Positions 17,101 through 40,185 of a DNA stretch of 64,000 bases are shown here, piece after piece (the first letter of the stretch is position 1; each line of letters opens with the position of its first letter). The notes beneath the pieces were generated by a model. The model made no database searches. It was given only the letters and a program-made list of their open reading frames with translations, and was not told where the DNA came from. The DNA is from Scenedesmus sp. PABB004 (taxonomy: Eukaryota): assembly GCA_014905635.1 (NCBI GenBank), contig JABVCE010000005.1, positions 1,550,001-1,614,000 on the forward strand, read 5' to 3'. The position numbers were made by a program, and so were the translations under genes.

Positions 17101-17402
17101 GGGGTTGCACCCCGCGTGCCGCCGCACGGCCCACCGGATGACAGCCGCCGCGCGGTCGGCGGCGGGGCTATTCGGTTGCTCTGCCTGCCCGGCACGAACG
17201 TGGACACGGCGCCGCCGACTCTCGCGCCGCCGCCGCCACCGCGGCCGACGCTCGGCAGCAGCAGCAGCGGCGAGCGGCCTCGCCACCGCACGCCAGGGTG
17301 CGCTGAGCACGCCAGCCGCTCAGGCGTGCGGCATAGCTTGGACTGAGCGTGCGGCTTGCGCGTGCCGCGCTCGTGCGGGCGCGGGAGGGCGCCGCAGCAC
17401 CC

Positions 17403-17995
17403 ATGGCCGCCGACGCCGACCTGGAGGGGCTGCTAGACGAGGCGCTGGGCCTTGCGCCTGCGCCTGCGCCGGCGCGTGAGCAGCCTCAGGCGCCGGCAGC
17501 AGCGGCGACGGCGGCAGCAGCAGCAGCGGCGGCGCCGGCGCTGCCGGCGTCGCTGCCGTCGCCCGGCGTCAGCCCGGGCCCCTCGCCGCTGGCGTCGCCG
17601 GCGCACTGGGCGCCGTACAGCCCGGCGAGCTCGGCGTCGGCGCAGATGCACGCGCATTGGAGCCCAGCGGTGGAGCCCCGAGCCCAGTGGAGCCCCGTGC
17701 GCGAGCGCCGCAGCCCGTCGCCGCGCGGGCCGGCGGCGGCGCCGTTGGCGGGCCTGCCGCGCGAGGTGCTCATGCGCGTGCTCTGCTTCCTCTCGGCCGA
17801 CGCGCTCACGGCGCTCGCGCAGACGTGCAGCGCGCAGCGCGCGCTCTGCGGGGAGGCCGTGCTCTGGCGCCGCCTCTTCGTCGCGCGCTGGGGCCGGCAG
17901 CCCGCGGCGCGCGCGGCCGGCGGCGAGCCGGGCGCGCCGCTCGGCTGGCGGGCGCGCTACATTGAGCGCGACGCGGCGGAGCTGCGCGCCGCGCG

Positions 17996-18061
<66 letters not shown>

Positions 18062-19053
18062 CGCCATGGCGGCCATCTTTGTGCAGGCCCACGTCGCGCG
18101 CCGGCAGCAGTCGCTCGGGCGCAGCGCGGTGGATGACCTCATGCTCGTGGCGGACGACGAGCTGCACGCCAAAGTCGCGGCGTGGCGCAGGGCGCGCGGC
18201 TTTGACGGCCGCGCGGGCGGGCCCGGCGGCGCGCAGCCAGCGCGCCCGGCCGACCTGGCTGCGCCGCAGCCGCGCCGCGGCGGCGCGGCGCAGCCGCACC
18301 GCGGCGCCGACATGACGCACGGCGCGGCGGGCTTCCCCCGGCGCGCCGTGGCCGTGCGCCGGCGGGGCGGCGCGAGCGGCACCAGCGGCACCAGCGGCAC
18401 CAGCGGCACCAGCGGCAGCGCGGCCGCTGGCCCCGGCTGCCCGGTCGCCGATGGCGCCAGCAGCGGCGGCAGCAGCGCCGCCGCGTGCGCCGCGGGCGGC
18501 GCCGCAGGCAGCAGCGCGGGCGGCGGCGGCGGCGCCGCGCCGCCCAGCAGCGCGCGGCAGCAGCAGCAGCAGCGGCGGCGGCGGTGGACGCAGTTCGGGC
18601 ACGTCTTTTGCGACGAGGAGACCGGCTGGGTGCACGTGTGCGACGAGACGTGCGCCGAGAAGATCGTCGAGCCGGTCTCGGGACTGCTCGTCTGCCCCAT
18701 CAGCGGGCAGACGCTGGACCGCATGATGACGTGCGCGGAGGAGGACGCCGAGGGCCGCGGCGGCGGCGACCCCGACGAGGGCAAGGGCGGCGAGGAGGAG
18801 TGGGGCGGCGAGCGCGGTGCGCGGCACGCGGCGCGGGCGCAGGCACGGGCGCGGCCTCGCCGGCAACGGGCCGCCGTCGCGGCTCGCACAGCAGCCGCTG
18901 TGCGAGGCGCCGTGGCGGCCTCCGGCGCACGCCTAACCCCGCGCCGCTGCCGGCCCGCGCGCAGGCCGCCTGGCGCGCGCGTTTGCCATGGGCTACGACT
19001 GCGACGACGAGCGCGAGCTGGAGCGGCGCTGCGGCGTGCGGCTGTCGCGCTGA
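17403..19053 (+). CDS. F-box protein, SKIP31-like (C-terminal Cys/His UL92-like domain)
   Basis: F-box LPREVLMRVLCFLS..LAQTC..LWRRLF. HVCDETC..LVCPISG. A GC-AG intron at 18808-18964 leads to GRLARAFAMGYDCDDERELE. Confidence 0.85.
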
Positions 19054-19487
19054 CCGCGCCGACCGCGGCGCCACCCATCCCCCGACCCCGCGCCGCCGGG
19101 GCACCCAGCGCGCTGCGCTCGGCCCCGGCGTGCCCAGCGTGCGCGCGCCCGCGACGCCGGGGGCCGCGCTGACTGCGGCTTGGGGCCACGCACGCAGGCC
19201 GCCGCGAAGCTGGGGGCTGCGCGCACGCGTGCGGTGGGGCGGCGGCGGCGGCCTGTGGCGCGGCGCCACGCGGTCGCCGCGGTTTGAACGCGTAAACGCC
19301 GCGCGCCCGCCGCCGCCGGCCCGAGGCCCGCGCCCGCGCGGCCAGTCGCTGACCCTCCGCCGCGCGGCGCTGGGACGCGGCGGCACACAGCCGGGCCACG
19401 CGCGCAGGAGTTGGAGCAGGCCGGCAGCAGCTCTGCGAGCCCCCGATCGCGCGCGCAGGCCCGGGCCCGGCGCGCGGCGGCCGGGCG

Positions 19488-22400
19488 ATGACCAAGATCG
19501 ACGCCTTCTTCAAGCGGGCGCCCAAGCCGGCCACGCCCGACGCGCTGCGGGCCCAGGATGCGGGCGCCCGGGCGCCGAACGCGGCCAAGCGCCCGCTGGA
19601 GCGCGGCGACGACGGCAGCGACACCCTCCAGCGGCGCCTGAGGGCCGACCAAGCCGGCGCGCAGGCGGGCCAGGCGGGCTGCACCGCAGCAGCGCAGGTG
19701 CGGGCCCCTGCGGGGCCGCCCGCCCCCGTCACGCGCGGGCGGGCGCGCGTGGCAATGCGCCGCAGCGAGGGCACCGCCTCGGCCGGCCTGCGGCGGCGCG
19801 CGGCGGCACGGCGCGAGCAAACGCCGCCGCTGCTGCGCGTGCTGCCGCTGCCCTCGCCCGCAGGCGGAGCCGGGCGGCGCCGCGCCGCCAGCGCCGGAGA
19901 CCGTGGACCTCAGCGCGGACTCGCCGCCGCGCGCAGCTGCTGCAGCAGCAGCAGCAGCTGAAGCGGCGCCGGCGCCGGCGGGGGACGTCCCCGCTGTGGG
20001 GCAGCGCGAGGCCACGCCCGACGCGATGGACGTGGACGCGGCGCCAGTGGCGACGCCCGCGCACGCAGCGGCCGGCGCGGCGGCGGCCACGCCCGCGACC
20101 GCGCCCGGGGCCGTCAGCGGCGAGTTCGCCACGCCCGCGGCCAGCCTGCTGCCGCCGCCCGACGTCGCGCCGGGCAGCACGGCGGCCGGCGGCGGCCCCG
20201 CGACGGCGTCCGGCGCCAAGGCGCCCGGCCCGGACGCGTTGCTCACGCCGCAGCAGCGCCAGCAGCTGCTGGAGGCGTGCGAGCGGGAGCTGCCCGTGCT
20301 CGAGGCGGCGCTGGACGAGCGCCCCGACCTGGCCGCGCAGCTCGCGGCGGGCGGCGAGGCCGGCGGCAAGAAGGCGCCGGCGCTGGACCTGAAGCACCAG
20401 GTCTCGCTGCGGGTGGAGGGCCAGGGGCTGCCGCTCACGCAGCTCGCGGCGCACGTAAGCGCGCTGCTCAGCGGCGGCGGCAGCGGCGAGCCGGGCGGCG
20501 GCGAGGCCGGCGGCGAGGCCGCCGCGGACGCCGGCGTGAGCGCGCTGGTGGTGCGCAACATCATCCAAGACGTCGCCGCGCGCAAGAGCTACGGCCTGCA
20601 GGACGGTGAGCGCAGCGGCGCGGCGCCGCGGGCGCGCGCGCGGCCGGCGGCCGTGCAGCCGCGCCGCGCCGCGGCCGTGCGACGCCCGCGCACCGCGCGC
20701 GTGCGCAGGCGCGCTGGCTGACGTGGACGCGCTGGAGGACGCGAGCCCCGCGTTCCACTGGCGCTGGGAGCTGCGCACGCTCTTGGCCCTGCCCAAGCGC
20801 GTCCGGGCCGCCGCGGACGCCGCGCGCAAGCAGAACAAGCAGGTCCTGGAGCGGCTGCGCGCAGCGGCCGCATTTGTGGCGCTCGCGCGCGACTTCACCA
20901 AGCCCACAAAGGCGGCCGAGACCAAGCTCGCAAAGGCGGCCGCCCGGCTGGCCAAGTGCGCGCCGCTCGAGGCGCTGCAGGGCGCGGCGGGCGCGGCCGC
21001 GGCGGCGGCCGCGGCGGCGCACGCGCAGGCGGCGTCGGCGGTCAAGGTGCGCGGCTGCAGGCGCTGGAGGAGCCGCGGCGGCTGCGCGGCGGGAGCAGCG
21101 CGCGGGGCCTCGCGCGGCGCCCCACGCGCTGTGTGCGCGCGTTGCCGCCGCCCGCGCGGCCGCAGGCCAAGGTGGCCGCGAGCCACGCTGGCAAGGAGGC
21201 GGAGCGCGCGGCCAAGCAGGCGGAGCGCGAGGCCGACAAGGCGGCCAAGGCGGACGAGAAGGCGCGGGCCAAGGCAGAGGAGGACAAGGTGGGCCGCCCG
21301 GGAGCGCCCGGGGGGTTGCCTCGGTGCCAGCGCTCGCGGCGGCGCCCCGCTCACCGCGCCCCCGTCCGCCGCGCAGCGGCGCGAGGAGGCGCGCGCGGCC
21401 AAGGCGGCCGAGGCGGCCAAGCGCAAGCTGGACGTGAGCGCGGCCAAGAAGGGCTTCCACAGCGCCGGCGAGATGCAGCGCGCGCAGCACGGCCTCATGG
21501 TGCGGCGGCGCAGGCCGCGGGCAGGCCGCGCGGCGAGGCGATGCGCGGGCGCCTCGTGACGCACGGCGCCGCCGCCCGACGCCGCACGTGTGGCGCGCGC
21601 GCAGAGCTTCCTGGGCCGCGCGCCCAACCGCGCGCCCACGCCGGCCGGCGCGAGCGGCGACACGAGCCAGGGCGCGGGCAGCCAGCACACCGGCGGCGGC
21701 GCCGCCAAGGCGCGCAGCGCATCGGGCAGCGCGCAGGCGGGCGACGGCGGCGCGGGGGCGCGCCCCGCGGCGGAGCCGTCGCAGCAGCAGGCGGCGCTGA
21801 TGCAGCAGCTGGACCGGGAGGTGCCCTGCCTCTGCGCGGCGCACGGCGCGGACGGCGGCAGCGGCGCCGACGGCGGCAGCAGCGCGCCCGCGGCGCTGCC
21901 AGCGCCGCCGCTGCCGCAGCTGCTGGGCGAGCTCGTCGCGCGCTGCAAGAGCGTGCGGCGGAGGGGCCAGCCCGCGGCACGCGGTGAGCCGGCGGCGGCC
22001 CGCCCCGCGCCCCGCCCGCCGCGACCACGCCCGTCGCTGCACTCACCTTCGCCGCCGTGCGCCGCGCTCCCGCGCGCCGCGCCGCCCCCGCGCAGGCCTG
22101 CCGCCGAGCTGGGCGCGCCGCCCCGGCGCCGGCTGCGCGCCCGAGGCGATCGCGGCGCGCGCGGCCGCGCTGTACGGCGAGGGCGTCGACCTGGGTACCC
22201 TGCGCGCGTGGCGGCGCAAGCTCATCCGCCACCACGACAGCGTCCGCCCCGCCTACTACGGCAGCGCGTCGCGCCGCAGCAGGCGCGCGCACGCGCGCGC
22301 CTGCGCGCGCTGCGCCCTGCTGCACGCACGCCGCGCGCCGGCGCCGACGCCAGCGCGCACGGCCGCGCCCGTCGCGCGGCGCGCAGGTGGGTGCGCGCGC

Positions 22401-25400
22401 GGCGGCCGCTGGCGCGCGAGCCGGAGCTGGACTACGAGGTGATGAGCGACCAGGACTGGGAGGAGGAGCCGGAGGGCGAGAGCCTCTCGGTGGGCGCCCG
22501 CCGCACTCGCGAGCTGGGGACGGCGCGCGGCGGCGCGGCGGCGTGCCGGAGCCGCGCTGCCGCCGAGCGCCCGCACGCCGCGCGATGACGCAGGTGGACG
22601 CCGAGGACGAGGAGGAGGGCGGCCCCACGGAGGGCGAGGAGGAGGAGGAGGGCCAGGGCTTTGTCGTGGGCGACGACTATTTGAGCGACGACGAGGGCCA
22701 GCGCGACGACGGCGACGACCGGCCGGGTGCGCGGCGCCGCGCGCTGCGCCGGCACGGCCGCGGACGGCCGCGTGCGCGCGCGCGCTCGCTGACGGCGCAC
22801 TGGCCCGCGCCGCAGGCGGTAGCGCGCTCGGCGAGCCGGGCGGCGCGCTGGCGGCGCTCGAGGTGGGGCTGGAGCGCGCGCGGGCGCGGGGGCGGCCCGT
22901 GGTGCTGGTCAGCGCCGCCATCTGCCCCCACATGGCCTGGGAGCCGACGTCGAGTGAGCCGGGGGGGCGGGGCGGCCGGCCGCGCGCTGGCTCGCAGCCA
23001 GCGGCGCCGGCCCGCGCTCAGCTCGCCCGGCGGCACGCGCTCAGCCGCGCTGCCCCCCCCCCTGCCCGCCCGCCGGCGCAGGCCTCGAGCCGTCGCTGCT
23101 GGCGAGCCTGCGCGGCAGCGTGCTCACGCCCGGCGCCGTGGCGCAGCCGCCCACGCCCAGCACGCTGCCCCACCTCTTTGGCGCGCGCCCGCCCGCGGCG
23201 GGCGGCGCCGCGGCGGCAGGCGGCGCCGAGCCGGCGGCCGCGGCCGGCGGCGGCGACGCGCCGGGCGGGGGCGCCGCGCCCGCGCACCGCGGCGGCGGCC
23301 GCCCCGCGCTGCCCTTCCCCGACGCGCTGCTGCCGGCGCTCGCGGCGCATGTGCACGGCGCGACGCTGCCGGTCGAGCGCCTCGCCGCCGACTTTGTCGC
23401 GGCCGCCGCGGCGCGGGGGCAGCGCCTCACCAAGGCGCGCGTGCGGGAGAAGATCAAGGAGCTCACCTCCCGCGTCATGCGCGGCAAGGCGCCGCACAGC
23501 GTGCGCCCAGAGTTCATGCACCTCCTGCAGCAGCACGCCGGCGACGCCGGCGACAGCGGCGGCTCCGGCGGCGGCGGCGGCGCGGCGCTGCTGCAGGAGT
23601 CGGCCACGGCGGCGGTGGCGCCCGCGGCGGCGCGCGGCCTGGCGGGCGCCAAGCGCGGCGAGCCGCCCAGCAGCGGCGGCGAGCCACCCGGGGGCGCCGG
23701 CGCGGCGCCGCAGCCGGCGGCCAAGAAGCAGAGGACGCCCGGCGGCATCGAGCGCTTCTTTGGCGCGGGCGGCGGCAGCACGGCCAAGCCCGGCGAGCCG
23801 TGGCAGGAGCAGGAGCAGCCGCAGCAGCAGGCGCCGGTGCAGCAGATGCAGCAGCCGCCGGAGCAGCAGCCGGAGCAGCAGCCTGGCGCCGACACGCCGC
23901 CAGGCACGCCCGGCGGCCGTGGCGGCGGCGAGGACGACGACGTGGCTGGCGGGCTGGGCGGCATCAGCGGCGGGGTGCTGCCCATGCTCACGCCGGCCTC
24001 GGACGCCGACGCGGCGGCGGCGGCGCGGCCCGCGCTGGCCAACAGCCCCGTGCCGTTTGGGATGGGCGGCGGCGGGGCTGTGGGCGACGGCGGCACCGCG
24101 GGCGACGGCGGCGCCGAGCCGGCGCGGCCGCCCGTCAACCGCTGGCACGCGCAGGCCGACTGCCGCGGCATGCGGCTGGAGGGCGGCGACGCGGGCAACG
24201 CGCCGCTGCGTCAGCAGCACGCGGAGATGGGGCAGCAGCCGTTTGGGTTTGACCAGCCACAGGCGCAGCCACAGGCGCAGCCGCAGCTCTCGCCGGCGGC
24301 AAGCAGCGGCCGCGGCGGCGGCGGCGGCGGCGGCGCGAGCAGCAGCGCGGCTGGCCGGCTGCCGCCGCAGCTGCCCGCGGACGGCAGCCCGCCTGGCGTC
24401 GGCTTCTGGCGCCAGCTGGTGCGCCGCGCCGCAGGCGCCCGGCGTGGCGCCCCCGGCCTCCGCCGCGCCGCCCCACCTCACGCCGCCGCCACCGCCGGCC
24501 GCGCCTCGCGTGCCGTGTCCGTCGCAGGAGGCCTGGCTGGTGACCGAGCGCGAGCCGGGCGCCGACGAGCTGGGCCAGGCCTTCCGCGTGTTTGAGCCGC
24601 AGCACCTCGCCGGCGCGGTCGGCGGCATGCCCCAGGCGCGGCGCGGGCCTGCTGCGCTGGGCGGCGCGGCAGCGCGGCAGCGCGGCAGCGCGGCAGCACG
24701 GCAGCGCGCGCGCGGGGCCGCGGCCCCGGCCTGCGCGCCGCCGGCGTCCCGACCGCCCGCGGCTGCCCGGCCGCCTCGCCCCCGCAGATGGTGCTCACGG
24801 TGCTGGTCAAGACGCTCGGCAGCAACGCGGCGGGCCTCAGCATGCGCGCCGCGTGCGCGCGCTGCATCACCGCCACGGCGACCTGCCTGGCGCGCGGCGG
24901 CGGCGCCGCCGGGCCGGCGCCGGGCGGCGCGCCGCCCGCCAGCCGGAGCCCGAGCCCCAGCCCGCGCTCCGCGCCGGTGGAGGTGTCGTTTGAGGAGCTG
25001 TGCGACGAGCCCAAGCTGCTGGACCACCTGCTGCTGGCGACGCGGCCGGACAAGGTGCTCGAAACGGCGCGCGGCCGTGGCAGCGAGGCCGACGCGCGCA
25101 GGCTCGCGCGCGAGGCGGCGGAGTGTCTGCTGGCCATCATCAGGGTGCGGCGCCCGCGGCCGCGCACGCCCCTGCTGCGCCAGGCTGGCGGCGCCGCCGA
25201 TTACCTAGCGCTGGCAGCGCGCGGCGCTGCGCCCCGCGACCTGGCCCGGCGTGGCCGCGGCGCTCACTGCGCGCGGGCGCTCCGCCCGCCCCCGTGCGCG
25301 CAGGTGGGCGTCCCACGGCCGCTGTCGCCGGACGCGCCGCCGCCCAGCGCATCGGCGGCCGCGGCGGCGGCCGCCGTGCGCGCGCGGGTGGCCGGCACGG

Positions 25401-29282: not shown

Positions 29283-32200
29283 TCACCAGTCCAGGCGCGC
29301 GAGCGCGTGCGCCGCGGTGCGGCCGGCCCGCTCGCTCGCGAGGCGCGCATACATGACCGGGCACTCCCCGTTCTCGCACAGCACGGCGCCAAACTGGCAG
29401 CCGCTGCCGCAGCGGCGGCACGCCGAGTGCGCGGCCGCGAGGCGCGCCGCCGCGCCGCCCGCCTCGGCCGTCAGCGCGACGAGCACGGCCGCGCGCGTGC
29501 CGGGCTCGCGCGCGCACGCGTCGCAGAGGCCCGGCGCTGCGCCGCCCGCGCCCGGCCCCGCCGCGGGCGCGCGCATCGCGCGCTTGCAGGCGAGGCACTG
29601 CGGCAGGGTGGCAAAAAAGTGCTTCATGTTGCCCTGCTGCTTGCCGCCGCCCGCGGCCCTGCCAGCGCCGCGGCCGCCCCGCCCGCCGCGGCCAGGGCTC
29701 GCCCCGGCGCCGCGGCTCGGGCCGGCGCCGCCGCCGCCGCCGCCGCCCGGCGCGGGCAGCAGGTCGCTCGCCACGACCGACGCGCCCGCCTTGAGCTGCG
29801 TGTGGGGCCCGGTGAGCAGCGCCTGCAGCGCCGCGGGCGCCAGCACGGTCGCAAAGATCTCCTGCGGCGGCGGCGGCGGCGGCGGCGACGGTCACGTGAA
29901 TGTCCCTCCCCCGCGCGCGCCCCGCGCGCCCCCGCCGCACACCCACCTTGAGGGGAGCCTGCAGCTTGTTGGTCCTGCGGCGGCGGCGCGGCGCGTGCTG
30001 GGCGCGTGCTGGGGTGCGTGCTGGGGTGCGTGCTGGGCGCGCGCTGGGCGCGGCGCGTGGGGCGCGGGCCCGGCGCTGCGCCGCGGGCGCAGCGCAGCAG
30101 CACACCAATACAGGGAGTAGTTTGGCGACAGCCCCGCCAGCGCGGCCGTGAGCGGGTCCTCCGCCGCGTCGTCCTGGGTCTTGGCGCCTGCCGGCGCGCC
30201 GCGCGCAGCCCCCGGGGGGCGGGCAGGCGGGCGGGGGCTGGGCGCGAGCCCGCACGCGCGCGCCGCGCCGTGCTGCGCTGGCACCGGCGCCGTGTCGGCG
30301 GCCGCTCACCGGCGAGCAGCACGTAGGAGAGGCGCTCGCCCAGCACAAAGCGCTTGCGTGGGTCGCGCTGGCTCAGCCGCACCGCCAGGCTCGCGTGGGG
30401 GCCCTTCACCTCCTCCTCGCCGCCGCCGGCGCCGCCGGCGCCGCCGTGCGCCGCGGCCTCGAGCTGGTCGCCCGTGACGCGCCACAGGCCTCCCGTCATG
30501 GCCAGCTCGTCGACGCGCACGTCGCCCGACAGCAAACGGGCGATTTCGGACTGCGCAAAGCTGACCGCGCCAGGGACGTCGTCGTGCATGACGATGCGAT
30601 CGACCGCGCCCTGCCGTGTTTAGACGTCCCCGCCGCCGGCGCGGCGGGCGTGGCGGCCGCGCGTGGGGCGGCGCAGGTCCGGCGGCGCGAGCGAGCCGGG
30701 GCGAGGCCCGGCCGGCAGCGCGCCGCGCGGATCGCCGCGCCGCGCGTCCGCACCGTGAGCGTCGTCTGCAGCAGTGGCGCCGACTGGCGCCACACGGCCT
30801 TGACGCCCTTGATCAGCAGCTCCCCCGCCCCGGCCTCGGCGGCGGCCGCGGACGAGAAGGAGCGGCCCGCGTAGCGGTTGACGTGGAGCAGCATGAACGG
30901 CGCGCAGACGCGCTCAAACTTCAGCTCCATCGGCGGCGGCAGCCCGCGGGTGACCAGCGCCGCCGCGGCCTCGCCCACGGGCACGGCCTCGGCCGGCGAC
31001 GCCGCGGGGAGGTGGACGAACACGCTGTCCGTCTGCGCGTAGATCACGCGCCCGCCCGCGGCGCACGGCCCGAGCGCGCCGTCGCGCAGCGCGGCGGTGA
31101 TGGTTTCGATGGCGCCGCGGCACGCCGCCGCGCCGAGCGCGAGGCACGCGTCCGCGAGCGGGACGCACTGCAGCATCGACGCGCCCGCGCCTGCGCCGAC
31201 GGACGGGCTCAGCGGCGGCCGCGCCGGCTCGAGGCGAGGGGCGGGACGACGGCCAGGCGGGGCGGCCCCAGCGCGCGCTGGGGGCTCGGGCGCAGCGCCG
31301 CACCTGTGAAGCCGTAGAGGGCGTTGGCGGTCGTCTTGAGTGCCTTCTGCCGGCCGTCCAGCACCGCCGCGCGCGCCACGAGCTGCGCCGCGGTCGCCCC
31401 GCCGCCGCCGCCCGGCGCCGGGGCCGGCCCACCGCCGCGCTCGCGCTCCCGCGCCGCCGCGAGCTGCTGCTGGGCCGCCTTGAGCGCGGCGCGCGTCGTC
31501 GCGCGCGCGCCGACGAGCGCCGAGAGAATGGAGGGCAACACGCCGGGCGAGGTGCTTGGCTTAACAAAGGCGGCGCCCGTGGGCGCGACCGTGACCTCGT
31601 CCAGCGGGAGCCGCGCCACGTCGTCCGGGTGCAGCAGCGTGGTGTAGCACAGGTTGTGCGCGCTGCGCGGAGGCAGAGGCGGCAGAGGAGGCGGTCACGT
31701 GTGCGGCACCGGCGGCGGCGTGGGCCGGCGTGGGATCGGCAGCGGGGGGGGGGGGGGGGAGCGCCGCCGCCGCCGCCAGCGGCTGGCACTGCCAGCCAGC
31801 GGCAGTCTGGGGCGCGTGCGCACCGGTAGAGGCTCGGGTAGAGGCTGCCGGGGGGGGGGGGGGGGTGGGGCGGTGGCGGGGCGGCGGCGGCGGCGCAGCG
31901 CGTCGCTCGAGTCGGGCGCGGCGCGGCGCGGCGCGGCCAGCGCGCGCGGCCGGCCCCCGGCGCCGCGCCGCGCGCGCCTGGCAAAGTCGAGCGTCGCAAC
32001 CGCGCCGGTGCGGTAGAGCCCCGCCGTGCCGGCGTCGATCGGGTGCAGCAGGAAGGGCGACTCAGCGCACGACGCGGCGGGCGTGCGCCCAGAGATGATG
32101 AAGCCGCGCCGCGCCGCGCAGCGCAGCAGCAGGCTCCAGGTGCGGATCATCTGGGCCTGGTAGAGCACTGCGCGCGCGCGGGTGGCGCGCGGCGGGCGCG

Positions 32201-34903
32201 GGGCTCGGGGCTCGGGGACCGCCGGCGCGGCGCGCGGGCGGGCGGGGCCCTTTGTCTGCGCGCCGCGCCCGTGCCAAGAGCTCTGCGCGCCGCGCGCGTG
32301 CCCGCACCCACCCTGGTTGAGCGTGAGCCCCGTGGCGCGGGCGAGCTCGTAGGTGTCGGCGACGCTCGCCAGGCGGTCGAGGAGGCGCGACACGACGGCG
32401 CAGCGCGACACGGCGTGGCGCGCGAGGCGCAGCCCCGCCGCGACGAACGGCAGCTGCTCCGGCGCGACGCCGGCGCAGTCGGGGGAGGCGCCGCCGGCGC
32501 CGGCGCCGGCGCAGGTGCCACCCCCCTCGGCCGGCGGCGGCGTCGCGGCGAGCTGCTGCTGCAGGCCGGCGAGCACGTGGGGCGGCAGGACCTCGAGCGT
32601 GGCGTCAAGCAGGCTCTGGGCGCAGTCGACGAGCGTGAAGGTCGACAGGCCCTGGCTGGTCAGCACCTGGCGCAGGACGTCCAGCACCATGCGGCCCTGC
32701 AGGCCCTCAGCCCTGAACGTCTCCTGCGAGCGACGGCGCACGCGGGCGCGGCGTCACGCCGCGCCGCGCGGGGCGGCCGCGCCGCCGGCGCCCGAGCCGC
32801 ATCGCGCCAGCAACCAGGCGCCCCGCCGCGCGCGCCTGGTTGCTCGTGCTGGCCATTCGCGACTGGGACTTCACCCACGCGACGCTGCGGCGGGCGTGGC
32901 GGTCAGCCTGTCGCGGGCCGCAACGCGCGCCCCCTCCCGCGCTGCCCCGCCCCGCGCCCCGCTCACTTGTACATCACCACCGACTTGGTGCTGAGGCCGC
33001 GGCTCGCGCGGCGCACGGCGCGGCTGAGGTGGCACGCGCCGCCGTCAAGGCCGAGCGCGGCGAAGCGCGCCGCCAGGGCGCCCAGGGTGTCGCGCACCTG
33101 CGCGACGCGGCGCGTGCGTGGGAGGGAGGGCGGAGCGGCGGCCGCAGCGCGCGGCGCCCTAGGGGGCCAGCGCCAGCACGTGCACGTGCTGGCGCTGGCT
33201 GCGGCCACGTGGCCGCACCTGAAACACAGAGATGCAGTCCGGGTCCTCCGCCGCGGTCCAGTCCCTCCACGCCAGCAGCAGGGCCGCCTCGTCGGCAAAG
33301 AGCCGCACCTCGACGCCCTCCGCGGCCAGTGTGTGTCGCGGCAGCGCCGCCAGCGCGGCGGCGCCGGCGAGCACAAAGGCCAGCCGCCTCGGCGGCCCGC
33401 GCGGCGGCGCGCCGCCGCCGGCGTGCGCGAGCTGGCAGGCAATGGCGACGACGGGGTCGCCCGTGGGGTCGCAGCTGCGCGCCGCGCCGTCCGCGGGGGC
33501 CAGCAGGACGTCCAGCACCAACAGCTTGAGCGGCGCGATGTCTCCCGCCGCCGCAGCGGCGGCCGCTGCGACGAGCTCCGGCGGCGGCGCGGCCAGCTGC
33601 GCGAGCACCGGCGGCCGCCAGTCGGGCTCGGCCAGCTGCGTCGCGTCGGGCGTGAGGCTGTGCAGGCAGCGCCAGCCCGCCACCACCTCCACGTCGCACG
33701 TGCTGCGCCGCCGCGGGCCGGGCGGCACCCACTCCAGCGGCGGCGGCGGCGGCGGCGGCGCTCCGCCGCCGGCTCCGTCGGCCGCCGCGCCGCCCGCCGT
33801 CTCCGCTGCCGGCGGCCCCACCCACAGCCAGGAGCCGCCAGAGAGGCTGGTCTCGCAGAGGAAGCGAGTGAGCGGCTTGACCTGCAGGCGGCGGCGCGGC
33901 GCGGCGGCGCGGCCCCGCGCGTCAGATGAGCTCGCCCGCCGCTGCGCGCGCCCGCCGCAGCGTGCCGCCGCCGTCGCCGCCCCGCCGCAGGCCGCGGGCC
34001 GCACGCACGTCTGCGTCGTATGCCTCACAGCCGCGCGCGCGCCACGAAAACCCGGCGACCTCCAACGCGCCCGCGCCGGCGAGGCGCTCGACGTGGCCCG
34101 CCGCCTTCTTCGCGCCGCCGCCGCCGCCCGGCTCGAGCACGAGCCGCAGGACGGGCGCGCCGCGCGGCGCGTCGGGCCGGTAAAACATGATCGGCCGCCG
34201 TGCCGCGACGCACAGCGACGACACGCGGCAGTCCGCCGGCAGCCTGCATGCGCAGCGGGGCGCGGCGCGGCGCGCGGCTCGGCGAGAGCCGAGATGCGCC
34301 CACTGCGCCCCGCGCCGCGCCGCGCCGCGATGCGGACCTGGCGTTGAGCAGCACGCGCAGGCGCTCCAGGTCGGCGGGCTCGGGGTCGCGCGCCTCGCCG
34401 CCACCATCGCCGCCGGGCTGCTCCACCGTCGGCGCGGTCAGCCAGAAGCTCTGCGCGTAGTCGGGGACCACCACCAGGGCGGTGCGCCCGTCCCAGGCCT
34501 TGCCCCACAGCTGCACCGTGCCGCCGCTCGCTTCTGTGACGTCGGTGAGCATCAGCGCCAGCCCTGCGGCGGCGCATCGTGTCGGAGGGTGGGGGGGCTT
34601 GTGGCTTTGGCCGCCCGCGCCGGCCGGCGCGCCGCATGCGGGCAGCGGCGGGCGCAACAGCGGCGCAGCTGCTGCGCCGCTGCCGCTGCTGCCGGCGCCC
34701 ATGCCTCCGCCCGCGAGCAACCGCTTCCTGGCCACTTCCTGGCCACGACGCCTGCGTGGACCTGCCGAGCGCGCCGCGGACCGCCTCCACGCACCTGGCG
34801 GGCTGTCGGCGCCGCCGCTGCCGCTGCTGTCGCCGCCAGCATCGCCGCCGCCGACGCGCGGCCGCTTGGCCGCGGGCGCCTCCCGGGGGCCCGGCGGCTC
34901 CAT
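29283..34903 (-). CDS. Family B DNA polymerase, divergent Pol delta catalytic-subunit-like
   Basis: LDFASLYPSLYRAHNLCYTT, RQKALKTTANALYGFTG, RVIYAQTDSVFV, MELKFE, HVNRYAG, IKGVKAV, and C-terminal CLAC..CDAC and CRRC..CENGEC. Confidence 0.92.
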
Positions 34904-35277: not shown

Positions 35278-38200
35278 ATGGCGCCCCGCCACGCCCTCCT
35301 GCTGGGCCTCGCGGCCGCGTCTCTTCTTTGGCCGCGCCTCGCGAGCGCGCAAGTGGCCGGCGGTGCGCGAGGGCGGCGCCGCTGCTCGCGGCGTGCGCCG
35401 CCCGCGCCCGAGCCGCCCGCGCCCACCGCTGCCGCCGCCCGCGGCGCAGGCTGCCAGACCGGGCAGCCAAACTACTTTGCCGACTTTGGCCAGACCGGCC
35501 CCACCGTCACGCTCACCCGCAACGGCAGCGCGACCGGCAACGCCTGCTCCTTCTCCCTGCGCATCGCCATCGCGGACGTGGCGCGCTTCCACGCCAACCC
35601 CTACGTTGACTCCTGGGAGATTGTCGTGCTCGTGCGCCGCCGCCGCGCGCCGCCCGCCGCGCGCCGCGCGCGCCTGCCGCCGCCTGCAAAGCGCGCGCGA
35701 CGCGCGCGGGGCTCACCCCGCCGCCCGCGCGGCGCGCGCCCAGCGGCCGCTGTCGGCGGCGAGCCGCTTCCCCTACGTCGTCGGCCAGCGCGTGTACGAC
35801 TTCCCGCTGACCGTTCAGGCGCTGCCGTGCACCGGGTACTCCGCGTGCCCCGACTACGTCGGCGCGTCCTGCGAGCAGACGGGGCTCATCGTGCGCTTCG
35901 GCTTTGCGGAAAAGCCGGGCGTAGGTAGAGCTCGGCGCGCGCGGCGCTGGGCGCTGCTGGCTGCGCCCACACGGGCCGCGCGGCGGCCGCCGCCGCCGCG
36001 CTGAGCCCGCGCGCCGCCGGGCGCCGCCGCAGACTGCCCGGGGTTCAGCGACCTCATCGGCATCGCCGTGGGCGAGACGTACGTCTCCTCCGCCGTCAAT
36101 TGGACGTCGCCGCCGCCCAGCCTGCCCTGCCTGCCTGGCGCGGCGCGCGCTGGCGCGGCTGGCCGGCCTCGCCCGCGAGCGCGCGCGCTCGGTCGAGCGT
36201 GCGCGCGCCCCACGCGCCGTGCCTGCCGCTGCAGGCAACGCCGAGGACTTCAGCAACGTCACAGAGGGCGTGTGGGACACCCTGGCCGTCAAGTCGCCCG
36301 ACCCAAACTTTCCCGGGCGCTGCCGCTGGGCCATCAGCCTTTCCCTCACGCCCGACCAGGCGCGCGACGGCTGCCGCGCCGCGCGGCCGCCGCGCTGCCC
36401 CGCAGCGCGCGCCCCTGGCCCCTGCGCGCGCGCGCGCGCGCGCGTGCGCCCGAGCCGCCGCCGCCGCCGCCGCCGCCGCTGCGCCGCCGCCTGCGCGCGC
36501 AGCGCTTCCGGTACAGTCGCTGGATTGACTACATAAGCATGCGCGCCACGGGCGTCGACAACGGGCCGGGCGTGCGGCTGTTTTTTGCCGGCCGGGAAGT
36601 TTACAACCACACCTTCACCAACGGCGACTGCGCCGCGCCGGCGCGTGCAAAAAAAAAAACCGCCGCGCCCGCCCGCGCGCGCGCGCGCGCCCGCCCCGGC
36701 CGTGCCCGCCGCCGCCGCCGCCCGACCGCGCTGCGCGTGCTGCGCGCGCTGCACGTGCTGCGTGCAGGCGCTGGTCCTCGACCTGCTCTTCCTCGACGAG
36801 GCCCTAGGAAATTACCCCGCCATCACGACAGGCACGCTGACTCAGCATCCATCAGAGCGGCTGCGCTGGCCTGCCTGCGCGACGAGCTGCGCGCGGGCAG
36901 CAGCCCGCCGCCCGCCGCCGGCTGAGGGCCCCGCGCCGCCGGCGCCCCGCCCGCCCAGGTCACGCCCTCTGTCCCTTCCAAGTGGGCGCTCACTTTGAGT
37001 TCCTCGATGGCGTGGTCACCCGCCCCAGCAGCTACGTCGTGCCGCCCAGCAGCTGCCCAAACCAGCCGGCCGGCTCCACGCTCGTCGCGCGCGTCAACGT
37101 CGGTGCGAGGCCTCGCCTGGCTCGGCGCAGCGGGCCGCGGGTGCTGTCTTCGTCCAACCCAGACTCATCCAACCCAGACTCAGCTCAGACCTCACACCGG
37201 CCGCCCCTGCTGCCGCCGCCGCCGCCGCGCAGGCGGCCCCGCGCTGAGCTTCCCGACTGCCTGCGACTGGTCTGCCGACACCGGCGCCGCGCCCTACCCC
37301 GGCCGCACCGGCGGCTTTGCCATCAATGCACCCTCGGCCTGCAACCCGGCCACCAACTTTGGCGGCCCGCTGGCCTGCAGCGACCGCTGGGGCGGCGTCC
37401 TGAACTACACATTCCCTGCCACGCCCGGCGCGCCACATCTGGTGTGCGAGCGGCCTGAACGGCAGCCGGCGCTGCAGCGCCTGGCACTCACAAGGCCTGC
37501 CGCCACTGCTGGCGCCGCCAGGTGGTGCTGCACATGGCTGAGACCTACTGGACGGGCACCTCCGGCCCCGCCCCCGGCAGCCGCCTCGTGCGCGTGCGCA
37601 TCAACGGCGTGGTGCAGGCGCCCTCCACTGGCATTGACCCCTTCACCGCGGCGGGCCTGCCCGGCGCGCGCTTCACGCCCGCGCTCTTCCCTTACACCGT
37701 GACGGGCAGCGCGGGCGGCAGCGTGCAGGTCAGCCTTGACGCGCTGCTGGACCAGCCCAGCGTGGCTGCGATCGAGGTGTACCGCCTGTCTGGGGAGCCT
37801 GTGGCGTCACCTGCGCCCGTCGTGCCCTCGCCCGCGCCCGTGGTGACGTCGCCTGCGCCGGTCGTGCCCTCGCCTGCGCCCGTCGTGCCCTCGCCAGCGC
37901 CCGTCGTGCCGTCGCCTGCCCCGGTTGCTCCCTCTCCCAACCCGGCCAACGCCAGCGGCTGCCCCAACCAGCCAGCGGGCTCCACGCTTGTCGCGCGTCT
38001 CAACGCCGGTGCGCAGCCTGGCTCAGCACAGCGCGCTGCGCTGGCTTGATTCAGCCCAGCTCAAAACCTCATGAGCTCACCTCTGAGCTCAGTCCAGACC
38101 TACACTGACGGCTCCGGCCTCCTGTGCCGCTGCCGCCGCCGCGCAGGCGGCCCCGCGCTGAGCTTCCCCACTGCCTGCGACTGGTCTGCCGACACCGGCG

Positions 38201-39619
38201 CCGCGCCCTACCCCGGCCGCACCGGCGGCTTTGCCATCAACGCACCGTCGGCCTGCAACCCGGCCACCAACTTTGGCGGCCCGCTGGCCTGCAGCGACCG
38301 CTGGGGCGGCGTCCTCAACTACACATTCCCTGCCACGCCCGGCGCGCCACATCTGGTGTGCGAGCGGCCTGAACGGCAGCCGGCGCTGCAGCGCCTGGCA
38401 CTCACAAGGCCTGCCGCCACTGCTGGCGCCGCCAGGTGGTGCTGCACATGGCTGAGACCTACTGGACGGGCACCTCCGGCCCCGCCCCCGGCAGCCGCCT
38501 CGTGCGCGTGCGCATCAACGGCGTGGTGCAGGCGCCCTCCACTGGCATTGACCCCTTCACCGCGGCGGGCCTGCCCGGCGCGCGCTTCACGCCCGCGCTC
38601 TTCCCTTACACCGTGACGGGCAGCGCGGGCGGCAGCGTGCAGGTCAGCCTTGACGCGCTGCTGGACCAGCCCAGCGTGGCTGCGATCGAGGTGTACCGCC
38701 TGTCTGGGGAGCCTGTGGCGTCACCTGCGCCCGTCGTGCCCTCGCCCGCGCCCGTGGTGACGTCGCCTGCGCCGGTCGTGCCCTCGCCTGCGCCCGTCGT
38801 GCCCTCGCCAGCGCCCGTCGTGCCGTCGCCTGCCCCGGTTGCTCCCTCTCCCAACCCGGCCAACGCCAGCGGCTGCCCCAACCAGCCAGCGGGCTCCACG
38901 CTTGTCGCGCGTCTCAACGCCGGTGCGCAGCCTGGCTCAGCACAGCGCGCTGCGCTGGCTTGATTCAGCCCAGCTCAAAACCTCATGAGCTCACCTCTGA
39001 GCTCAGTCCAGACCTACACTGACGGCTCCGGCCTCCTGTGCCGCTGCCGCCGCCGCGCAGGCGGCCCCGCGCTGAGCTTCCCCACTGCCTGCGACTGGTC
39101 TGCCGACACCGGCGCCGCGCCCTACCCCGGCCGCACCGGCGGCTTTGCCATCAACGCACCGTCGGCCTGCAACCCGGCCACCAACTTTGGCGGCCCGCTG
39201 GCCTGCAGCGACCGCTGGGGCGGCGTCCTCAACTACACATTCCCTGCCACGCCCGGCGCGCCACATCTGGTGTGCGAGCGGCCTGAACGGCAGCCGGCGC
39301 TGCAGCGCCTGGCACTCACAAGGCCTGCCGCCACTGCTGGCGCCGCCAGGTGGTGCTGCACATGGCTGAGACCTACTGGACGGGCACCTCCGGCCCCGCC
39401 CCCGGCAGCCGCCTCGTGCGCGTGCGCATCAACGGCGTGGTGCAGGCGCCCTCCACTGGCATTGACCCCTTCACCGCGGCGGGCCTGCCCGGCGCGCGCT
39501 TCACGCCCGCGCTCTTCCCTTACACCGTGACGGGCAGCGCGGGCGGCAGCGTGCAGGTCAGCCTTGACGCGCTGCTGGACCAGCCCAGCGTGGCTGCGAT
39601 CGAGGTGTACCGCCTCTGA
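35278..39619 (+). CDS. Secreted protein with three malectin-like domains and (V)PSPAP-rich linkers, probable cell-wall glycoprotein
   Basis: Signal peptide MAPRHALLLGLAAASLL..ASA, and three copies of VVLHMAETYW..GSRLVRVRING..IDPFTAAG..AAIEVY. Confidence 0.75.
37050..39616 (+). repeat. Intragenic tandem repeat, 914-bp period, about 2.8 copies
   Basis: Identical landmarks at 37232/38146/39060 and 37522/38436/39350. Confidence 0.97.
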
Positions 39620-40185
39620 GCACGTGCACGAGCCCCTGCCCGCGCGCCGGCTGATCAAGCACAATGTTTTCTGAGTCTCCCAGCCCTGGCTGCGCGCGGT
39701 TGCTTTCATGAATAAACGGCCCGCTGCGCGCGTGCGCCGAGTCGGGCGGCGATCAGGCGCCGCGGTTCCCCTGAGCTCATCAGCCCCCGTGCGCCCCGGC
39801 CTCACCCTCGCCCACGCCTGCATCCACCATACTCATGTTCGTGAGTTGACTGCACTGCCCGAACTGCGCTGACTTTGGATCCGCACTGCTCACGCGGCAC
39901 GACGGTGACCTCGCATGCGTTACTCCCACACGCGCCGCTGCGTCTGAACGCCTCCGAACGCCGCCGCGCGCCCCCAGCCCGCGAAAACACCCGCCCAGTG
40001 AGCGACGTCCGTTGCTGCACACGCCGCCCACACACCGCCCGCGCACCAAACCCGGTTTCCCTGGTCCCTCGCCGTCCGTGCGAGATCACGCGACCGAGTC
40101 CCGCAGTTCGTTCGTTTCTCGCAGCCGGCCCGCACGCCGCCCCACGGCCGCGCCGCGCGCGGCTCAGCGGCGGCCCAGCGGCGGC

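Follow-up and report, generated by a model that had tools for sequence, protein, structure and literature searches.

In textbooks and in the survey PMC7544198, the eukaryotic B-family DNA polymerases are counted as four: alpha, delta, epsilon, and zeta. Closest to the gene described here are Pol delta (POLD1/Pol3), in which an N-terminal domain, an exonuclease fold, palm, fingers, and thumb are followed by a C-terminal domain (CTD) with the cysteine clusters CysA and CysB, and Pol zeta (REV3), which combines a CysA/CysB tail with a dead exonuclease domain. We analyzed a 64,000-nucleotide stretch of the genome of Scenedesmus sp. PABB004 (contig JABVCE010000005.1, positions 1,550,001 to 1,614,000; hereafter, the window), in which a gene on the minus strand, at 29283-34903, with 15 exons and a product of 1273 amino acids, is annotated as POLD1. 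Our analysis shows that this gene encodes the catalytic subunit of a previously unnamed eukaryotic B-family lineage, coordinate with Pol delta and Pol zeta. We consider it probable that the product is a non-proofreading, damage-responsive extender polymerase of this distinct delta/zeta-type lineage, an activity that we infer.

With Pol delta, the window protein and its relatives share the domain order, the size, and the predicted fold, as well as motif A, DFASLYPS, followed by NLCYTTL, and the string YGFTGA after motif B. They differ from it in lacking the catalytic residues of Exo I to III, in carrying YAQTDS and VNRY, in an insertion in the exonuclease-domain hairpin, and in forming a separate clade with support of 100/100. 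With Pol zeta, they share the dead exonuclease domain, the CysA/CysB tail, and, likely, a role in damage tolerance, and they may be its sister group (Shimodaira-Hasegawa-like approximate likelihood ratio test [SH-aLRT], 82); they do not, however, have the zeta motifs, they appear to lack the long zeta insert, and they fall outside the 100%-supported zeta clade.

Two other systems resemble the family in part. As described in PMC8764526, the second motif C Asp of B-family enzymes binds metals and the first points away, mutation of the first lowers activity in Pol alpha and two viral enzymes, and Sulfolobus Dpo2, which has neither the first PolC Asp (its motif reads HxxxD) nor an exonuclease, is as active as the replicase and excels in the extension of mismatched or lesion-opposed ends. 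On paper, archaeal PolB2/Dpo2, with its deleted or degenerate exonuclease domain, is an active, exonuclease-free extender with the same missing Asp, but it is archaeal, has no CTD, and is not related to the window protein as a family, and the window motif C keeps its Tyr (YAQTD), with Gln or His at the Asp position in the family. In trees built without PolB2, the window protein lies inside the eukaryotic delta/zeta group with a support of 100 against archaeal sequences. The inactivated C-terminal half of Pol epsilon is likewise a B-family module with degenerate catalytic motifs, kept for a role other than proofreading; there, however, the polymerase motifs are lost altogether, whereas motifs A and B and the metal-binding motif C Asp are invariant in the family.

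The initial annotation had described a Pol delta paralogue with dead proofreading motifs, an altered motif C and KKRY motif, motifs A and B intact, and two C-terminal cysteine clusters, and every one of these elements is present in the gene; the list below also gives the signature insertion of the family.

31024-31041, minus strand: motif C, YAQTDS (TAC GCG CAG ACG GAC AGC)
33501-33515, minus strand: LDVLL, the ExoI position within LLVLDVLLAP
33213-33230 (SVFQVR) and 33074-33091 (DTLGAL), minus strand: ExoII position, CISVFQVR/DTLGAL, split by an intron
32403-32429, minus strand: ExoIII position, RLARHAVSR
31980-31991 and 31832-31846, minus strand: motif A, DFA/SLYPS, split by an intron
31311-31337, minus strand: motif B, KTTANALYG
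30865-30882, minus strand: KKRY position, VNRYAG
29514-29597, minus strand: CysA
29361-29420, minus strand: CysB
32836-32877, minus strand: signature insertion of the family, WVKSQSRMASTSNQ, in exon 6

In an alignment with 17 canonical Pol delta sequences, the substitutions of the window protein fall on the canonical motif columns: it reads LDVLL, FQV-RDTL, and RHAVSR where all 17 have DIEC, GYNIxNFD, and YCLKD. The ExoI Asp is retained in most chlorophyte members (LDVxx), in which only the Glu is lost. Among the polymerase motifs, motif A matches that of Pol delta, motif B is KTTANALYG where Pol delta has KxSANSVYG (NA rather than NS), motif C is YAQTDS, and the KKRY motif is VNRY. The CTD contains eight cysteines, arranged as CxxC...CxxC and CxxC...CxxxxC, and has a zf-C4pol Pfam match; as in Pol delta, CysA would bind Zn and CysB an Fe-S cluster. 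These deviations are far beyond chance, because the same changes recur in orthologues.

Searches with the palm exon and with the orthologue from Bryopsis returned 54 clade rows at 263-993 bits; below a gap, the next 66 rows were canonical Pol delta, scoring no more than 252 bits with approximately 34% identity. The 54 rows come from Chlorophyceae, Trebouxiophyceae, Bryopsis, the prasinophyte Cymbomonas, Chlorokybus, Klebsormidium, Closterium, Physcomitrium, a lycophyte, and ferns; none is from a seed plant, though dozens of canonical seed plant deltas rank just below. Motif C takes the form Y[AGCS][QH]TDS in 65 of the 67 clade proteins (35 YAQ, 17 YGH, 8 YGQ, 3 YCQ, and 2 YSQ) and YGDTDS in none, the region being missing in the remaining 2, and xNRY[AC]G is present in 63 of 67. 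The canonical YGDTDS, by comparison, was found in all 66 next-best rows and in 103 of 103 canonical delta sequences, and KKRYAG was found in 65 of the 66. The conservation of YAQTDS in other algae, which the initial annotation had proposed as a check, extends as a Q/H-type motif C to 65/67 relatives, streptophyte algae included.

What has been kept is equally informative. In an alignment of 31 full-length members, the motif A Asp within D-F-x-S-L-Y-P-S, the K, N, Y, and G of motif B, and the Y, T, D, and S of motif C are invariant, as is the steric-gate Tyr in these 31 sequences, which span the chlorophyte-streptophyte split; the eight C-terminal cysteines are at least 90% conserved. The conservation of residues over such distances argues for purifying selection, and the variant polymerase is, on this pattern, a conserved gene family rather than a decayed copy or a private oddity of one alga.

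Other species have the canonical enzyme as well as the variant. A search seeded with an algal canonical delta (P0078), from which the best 120 of 7846 matches were listed, placed canonical POLD1 and the variant in the same assemblies, as judged by shared assembly prefixes, in at least eight other species, including Physcomitrium and the following.

Myrmecia bisecta: canonical WJX72_011160, variant WJX72_009511
Coccomyxa subellipsoidea: canonical WJX75_008145, variant WJX75_002409
Tetradesmus obliquus: canonical OEZ86_008668, variant OEZ86_006502
Micractinium sp.: canonical ABPG77_003854, variant ABPG77_006560
Ceratopteris: canonical KP509_29G084300, variant KP509_21G026000
Adiantum capillus-veneris: canonical GOP47_0021382, variant GOP47_0000478
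Volvox reticuliferus: canonical Vretimale_5040, variant Vretimale_4197

Scenedesmus sp. NREL 46B-D3 also carries both genes (P0425 and P0034).

When 1.84 billion representative sequences were searched with a profile built from the 31 members, the matches comprised clade members, canonical delta, and two further groups, which we call Q and R. Group Q consists of six proteins with Y[ASG]QTDS and VNRY, one of them from the pelagophyte Chrysophaeum taylorii. Group R keeps YGDTDS and RKRY and has no ExoI DxE; its members come from Gonapodya, Paraphysoderma, Rhizophlyctis, and Cladochytrium, from the Taphrinomycotina Saitoella and Savitreella, from the stramenopile Platysulcus, and from metagenomes. 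Every group of the family carries the insertion W[VI][KR]xQxRMxxTSN[QR]E in the hairpin region of the exonuclease domain, which was found in no delta, zeta, or archaeal row of the alignment, and the thumb motif GLW is common to the groups. The exonuclease motifs are lost and the CysA/CysB CTD is kept throughout the family, whereas the replacement of the first motif C Asp by Gln or His and of the second KKRY Lys by Asn occur together in the green and pelagophyte branch, the basal fungal group keeping both residues. The family is patchily distributed: the matches seen included no seed plant, animal, or budding yeast. A search of the protein atlas led only to clusters with the generic name "DNA polymerase."

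Several individual proteins from these searches deserve mention. A basal metagenomic member of 1554 amino acids (P0070) has DIQ at ExoI, YGDTDS, NKKY at the KKRY position, and the hairpin insertion of the family, and may represent an intermediate state. In Cymbomonas tetramitiformis, two models of one gene (P0063 and P0038) include an N-terminal Exo_endo_phos (APE-like) domain, and P0063 has a RanBP-type zinc ribbon ahead of the CTD; we set the Exo_endo_phos fusion aside as a clue to function, as it is confined to this one species and may be a real fusion or a product of merged gene models. An 816-amino-acid B-family open reading frame (ORF) with DFKSLYP and YGHTDS, from a metagenome-assembled genome (MAG) labeled Altibacter sp. 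(L219), shows the same replacement of the first Asp in an unrelated setting. Delta-like polymerases of 1099-1298 amino acids with C-terminal CxxC clusters, from MAGs labeled Dehalococcoidia (L196, 29% identity over residues 90-1164), Verrucomicrobiaceae (L202), and Pirellulales (L218), are likely eukaryotic or giant-virus contamination of bacterial bins.

The phylogenetic place of the family was addressed with IQ-TREE under LG+C20+F+G4 by posterior mean site frequencies (45 rows and 815 columns). The family, comprising the green clade and groups Q and R, was separated from all else at 100/100 and the green clade was supported at 98/97, with streptophytes and chlorophytes separating inside it as in the species tree. 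Joining the variant green clade with canonical green-lineage delta, a group chosen after inspection of the tree, costs 283 log-likelihood units and was rejected by the approximately unbiased (AU) test (p 6e-33). Taken together with the coexistence of both genes in at least eight other species, this position outside canonical delta bears out the suspicion of the initial annotation that the gene is not the replicative POLD1. Its description as simply an algal Pol delta paralogue needs revision: the family is much older than such a name implies and is also present in streptophytes, pelagophytes, chytrids, and Taphrinomycotina.

To represent zeta, metagenome contigs were scanned with a degenerate pattern for a zeta motif, which yielded 11 loci with single-ORF Rev3-like genes of 1498-1698 amino acids; the ORF of one of them (L144) matched the yeast Rev3 chain of known structure along its entire length at 3478.8 bits. 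Further zeta sequences were chained from tblastn pieces, so that each tree held 7 to 20 zeta sequences, a sample that is probably all fungal. When rooted with archaeal PolB, the eukaryotic group of delta, zeta, and the family was supported at 100, and within it zeta (100), delta together with the nucleocytoplasmic large DNA viruses (NCLDV; 98-99), and the family (95-96) were each monophyletic. With the same root, FastTree left the order of the three unresolved and a quick tree under a mixture model joined zeta with the family (SH-aLRT, 82). NCLDV polymerases branch beside the canonical delta representative P0264, inside delta, and therefore provide no valid outgroup for questions of delta and zeta; a clade of zeta and the family obtained under an NCLDV root was discarded as an artefact for this reason. 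With an archaeal root, the family thus appears as a third branch beside delta and zeta, one that pairs weakly with zeta or whose order is left unsettled, and it did not group within REV3, the outcome against which a B-family phylogeny had been proposed as a check.

Structural comparisons point toward delta. In PDB searches, human delta outscored yeast Rev3 for Bryopsis (309 versus 153 bits), Saitoella (426 versus 213), and P0070 (402 versus 195). The fold comparison was made with the Chlorokybus orthologue P0058, which stands in for the 1273-amino-acid window protein. Its AlphaFold2 model (predicted local distance difference test score, 82; predicted template modeling score, 0.82) has as its best PDB match Pol delta from yeast (template modeling [TM] score, 0.75/0.87; 28% identity) and as its second Pol zeta (TM score, 0.69/0.64; 17% identity). 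The long insert of zeta, with its REV7-binding motifs, lies between the N-terminal and exonuclease domains; family members are 1100-1350 amino acids long, and the P0058 model has only a short disordered loop, at residues 289-317. The zeta signature, DFQSLYPSI...YNYC with KLIANVTYG, is seen in the fetched zeta ORFs; at these sites, the family has DFASLYPSLYRAHNLCYTT and K..ANALYGFTGA, with NLCYTT rather than YNYC.

Considering these data, we propose the following mechanism. The retention of motifs A and B, the second motif C Asp, and CysA/CysB beside family-wide loss of the exonuclease motifs, which agrees with the exonuclease-minus enzyme foreseen in the initial annotation, would give a polymerase that is active but does not proofread. 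As set out in PMC4333401, the second Lys of KKRY (K706 of RB69, K814 of Pol delta, K967 of Pol epsilon) hydrogen-bonds the n-2 base in the minor groove and keeps the primer end in the polymerase site, and its loss moves the primer end to the exonuclease site. An enzyme deprived of the residues that grip and verify a properly paired primer terminus would be suited to repair or damage tolerance, where ends that are mismatched or damaged have to be extended. As there is no exonuclease site to which the primer could be lost, giving up the checks on the primer end may translate into tolerance of aberrant termini. Through its CTD, the protein would probably bind the B subunit (POLD2/Pol31) that delta and zeta have in common, and it would act alongside the replicative Pol delta and alongside Pol zeta without replacing either.

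The moss offers a lead on the regulation of a member. Physcomitrium has three delta-like clusters, on records of 19.5, 16.0, and 5.3 Mb, with the variant (PHYPA_022292, XP_024401114) on the 16.0-Mb record. The chromosomes are presumably numbered by size, which by elimination would make the variant subunit 1b. Table 1 of PMC8711748 has POLD subunits 1a (Pp3c6_19160), 1b (Pp3c17_18800), and 1c (Pp3c27_3350), with POL zeta subunit 1 (Pp3c2_33440) entered separately; the same source assigns Pp3c17_18800 to cluster 8, which is gamma-ray and SOG1 dependent. After bleomycin, Pp3c17_18800 was up 5x according to PMC4990234.

A number of points weigh against an active, damage-responsive extender. According to PMC4333401, synthesis is almost lost in the K706A mutant of RB69 and the K967A mutant of Pol epsilon; as mutants of the KKRY Lys cripple synthesis, the double change in the green branch could mean a very weak or inactive enzyme. 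Canonical subunit 1a of the moss is found in the same cluster 8 in PMC8711748, and the induction is therefore not specific to the variant gene, while Pp3c17_18800 itself is the probable moss orthologue by elimination and not by sequence match. Binding of the B subunit is a prediction from the conserved cysteines. The zeta sample, probably all fungal and on a long stem, makes long-branch effects possible and the position of the family relative to zeta uncertain. For PABB004 itself, the presence of a canonical POLD1 alongside the variant is an expectation drawn from its closest relatives.

Among the alternatives, the main rival, though unlikely, is a catalytically dead pseudo-polymerase that makes no DNA and in which fold, DNA binding, and the B-subunit-binding CTD are kept for a structural or regulatory role, comparable to the inactive C-terminal half of Pol epsilon. 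Two of the replaced residues, the first Asp of motif C and the second Lys of KKRY, cripple other B-family enzymes when mutated; the exonuclease is inactivated as well, and branch lengths put the evolutionary rate of the family at approximately twice that of canonical delta. Yet the residues of chemistry and deoxynucleoside triphosphate selection (motif A Asp, steric-gate Tyr, K/N/Y/G of motif B, and T-D-S of motif C) are invariant across the 31 sequences, a constraint that one would not expect in a scaffold; YGDTDS and RKRY are retained in full by the fungal members and others at the base of the family, and Dpo2 demonstrates that an enzyme can do without the first Asp and still be robustly active. 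That the gene is instead a green-algal REV3 orthologue mislabeled as POLD1 is highly improbable. Such an identity would account for the dead exonuclease domain, the CysA/CysB tail, and the pairing with zeta in the archaeal-rooted mixture-model tree (SH-aLRT, 82), and a damage-sensitive deletion in Chlamydomonas hit a "Pol zeta homologue," whose gene identifier is not given in the available text of PMC4140758. The 7 to 20 zeta sequences are nonetheless monophyletic at 100 to the exclusion of the family, even though the family contains fungi; PDB bits and fold are both closer to delta; YNYC after motif A and KLIANVTYG are absent, the family having NLCYTT and K..ANA.YGFTGA; the proteins, at 1100-1350 amino acids, appear to lack the long zeta insert; the moss lists a separate Pol zeta gene; and no seed plant REV3 appeared among the clade matches.

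An origin as a lineage-specific duplicate of green-lineage POLD1, or by capture from a giant virus, is more improbable still. The best matches outside the family are canonical delta, at approximately 28-34% identity, and NCLDV PolBs are delta-like, but the AU test rejects a clade with canonical green-lineage delta and the family includes fungi and stramenopiles. The best 80 viral loci, which are NCLDV-type PolBs, are 23-29% identical and group with delta in trees, and a loose regular expression found no motif C match in 71 of these 80, with no clear Q/H-TDS seen in the set. Least credible of all is that the gene is the sole, hence replicative, Pol delta of PABB004, diverging fast under 80% guanine-plus-cytosine (GC) pressure. 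The POLD1 label and the GC content of the window (72-82%) fit this idea, and a canonical POLD1 of PABB004 was not among the best 120 of 7846 matches to P0078, an absence that says little in a ranking of that depth. The same substitutions, however, occur in relatives with low GC content (Bryopsis, ferns, and moss), and both genes are present in Tetradesmus obliquus and Scenedesmus sp. NREL 46B-D3, the nearest relatives.

A wider hypothesis, somewhat less likely than not, is put forward tentatively. In this scenario, the family is an ancestral fifth B-family catalytic subunit of eukaryotes, a third member of the delta/zeta group with a dead proofreading site bearing a hairpin insertion and with a delta-type tail for binding the B subunit. 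It would survive in green algae, land plants other than seed plants, pelagophytes and further stramenopiles, chytrids, and early ascomycetes and would have been lost repeatedly; seed plants, animals, and budding yeasts are examples of such loss. In the green and pelagophyte branch, the first motif C Asp and the minor-groove Lys would have been replaced together, giving an enzyme dedicated to extending aberrant primer ends and so a counterpart in eukaryotes of archaeal Dpo2.

A protein search with the palm exon returned "POLD1 [Scenedesmus sp. PABB004]" (P0002; 1273 amino acids, 100% identity), which aligned letter for letter to 15 minus-strand exons, from an ATG at 34903-34901 to a TGA at 29285-29283; the span 29283-34903 is therefore exactly the annotated coding sequence. 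Pfam matches to DNA_pol_B_exo1, DNA_pol_B, and zf-C4pol were obtained in minus-strand frame pieces across this span. Exon ends are accurate to approximately 2 nucleotides, as codons are split.

34793..34903, minus strand: exon 1, amino acids 1-37
34337..34561, minus strand: exon 2, amino acids 38-112, N-terminal domain
34006..34242, minus strand: exon 3, amino acids 113-191, N-terminal domain
33213..33878, minus strand: exon 4, amino acids 192-413, inactivated exonuclease domain with ExoI and the first half of ExoII
32969..33091, minus strand: exon 5, amino acids 414-454, second half of ExoII
32836..32883, minus strand: exon 6, amino acids 456-471, signature insertion of the family in the hairpin region of the exonuclease domain
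32313..32723, minus strand: exon 7, amino acids 472-608, ExoIII position
31980..32168, minus strand: exon 8, amino acids 609-671, ending in LDFA, the start of motif A with the catalytic Asp
31823..31846, minus strand: exon 9, amino acids 672-679, SLYPSLYR, with the remainder of motif A
31299..31661, minus strand: exon 10, amino acids 680-800, fingers with motif B
30754..31185, minus strand: exon 11, amino acids 801-944, palm with motif C and the KKRY position
30308..30610, minus strand: exon 12, amino acids 945-1045, thumb with the family motif GGLWRVTG
30105..30185, minus strand: exon 13, amino acids 1046-1072
29947..29973, minus strand: exon 14, amino acids 1073-1081
29286..29861, minus strand: exon 15, amino acids 1082-1273, CTD with CysA and CysB (zf-C4pol)

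In the intron that splits motif A (31847-31979, minus strand), the donor is GC and the acceptor AG, in place of the usual GT-AG pair. Upstream frames on the plus strand, at 21560-22585 and 17337-19169, are probably neighboring genes; they match the dimerisation domain of CAF1A, subunit A of chromatin assembly factor 1 (E 1e-7), and an F-box-like domain (E 4e-9), and in a eukaryote, such neighbors say nothing about the function of the polymerase. Elsewhere in the window, a direct repeat with a period of approximately 914 bp extends over approximately 36900-39800 (for example, 37810-37934 and 38724-38848), with internal tandem units of 63 bp that recur unchanged after 914 bp, and with open frames at the same spacing.

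In the literature searched, outside of which most subscription journals fall, we found no description of the family or of the strings YAQTDS, YGQTDS, or YGHTDS, and the moss papers name the probable orthologue only as "POLD subunit 1b." An earlier description may exist.

In conclusion, the window gene should not be taken as the replicative polymerase of this alga. Many algal, moss, fern, and fungal genomes carry a gene of this family mislabeled "POLD1," which inflates counts of delta copies. For enzymology, the family amounts to a natural, long-run experiment on the roles of the first motif C Asp and the KKRY Lys, and gene targeting in moss and mutant libraries of Chlamydomonas provide tractable systems. 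With respect to repair, algae, mosses, and early fungi would have a polymerase without a counterpart in animals or yeast.

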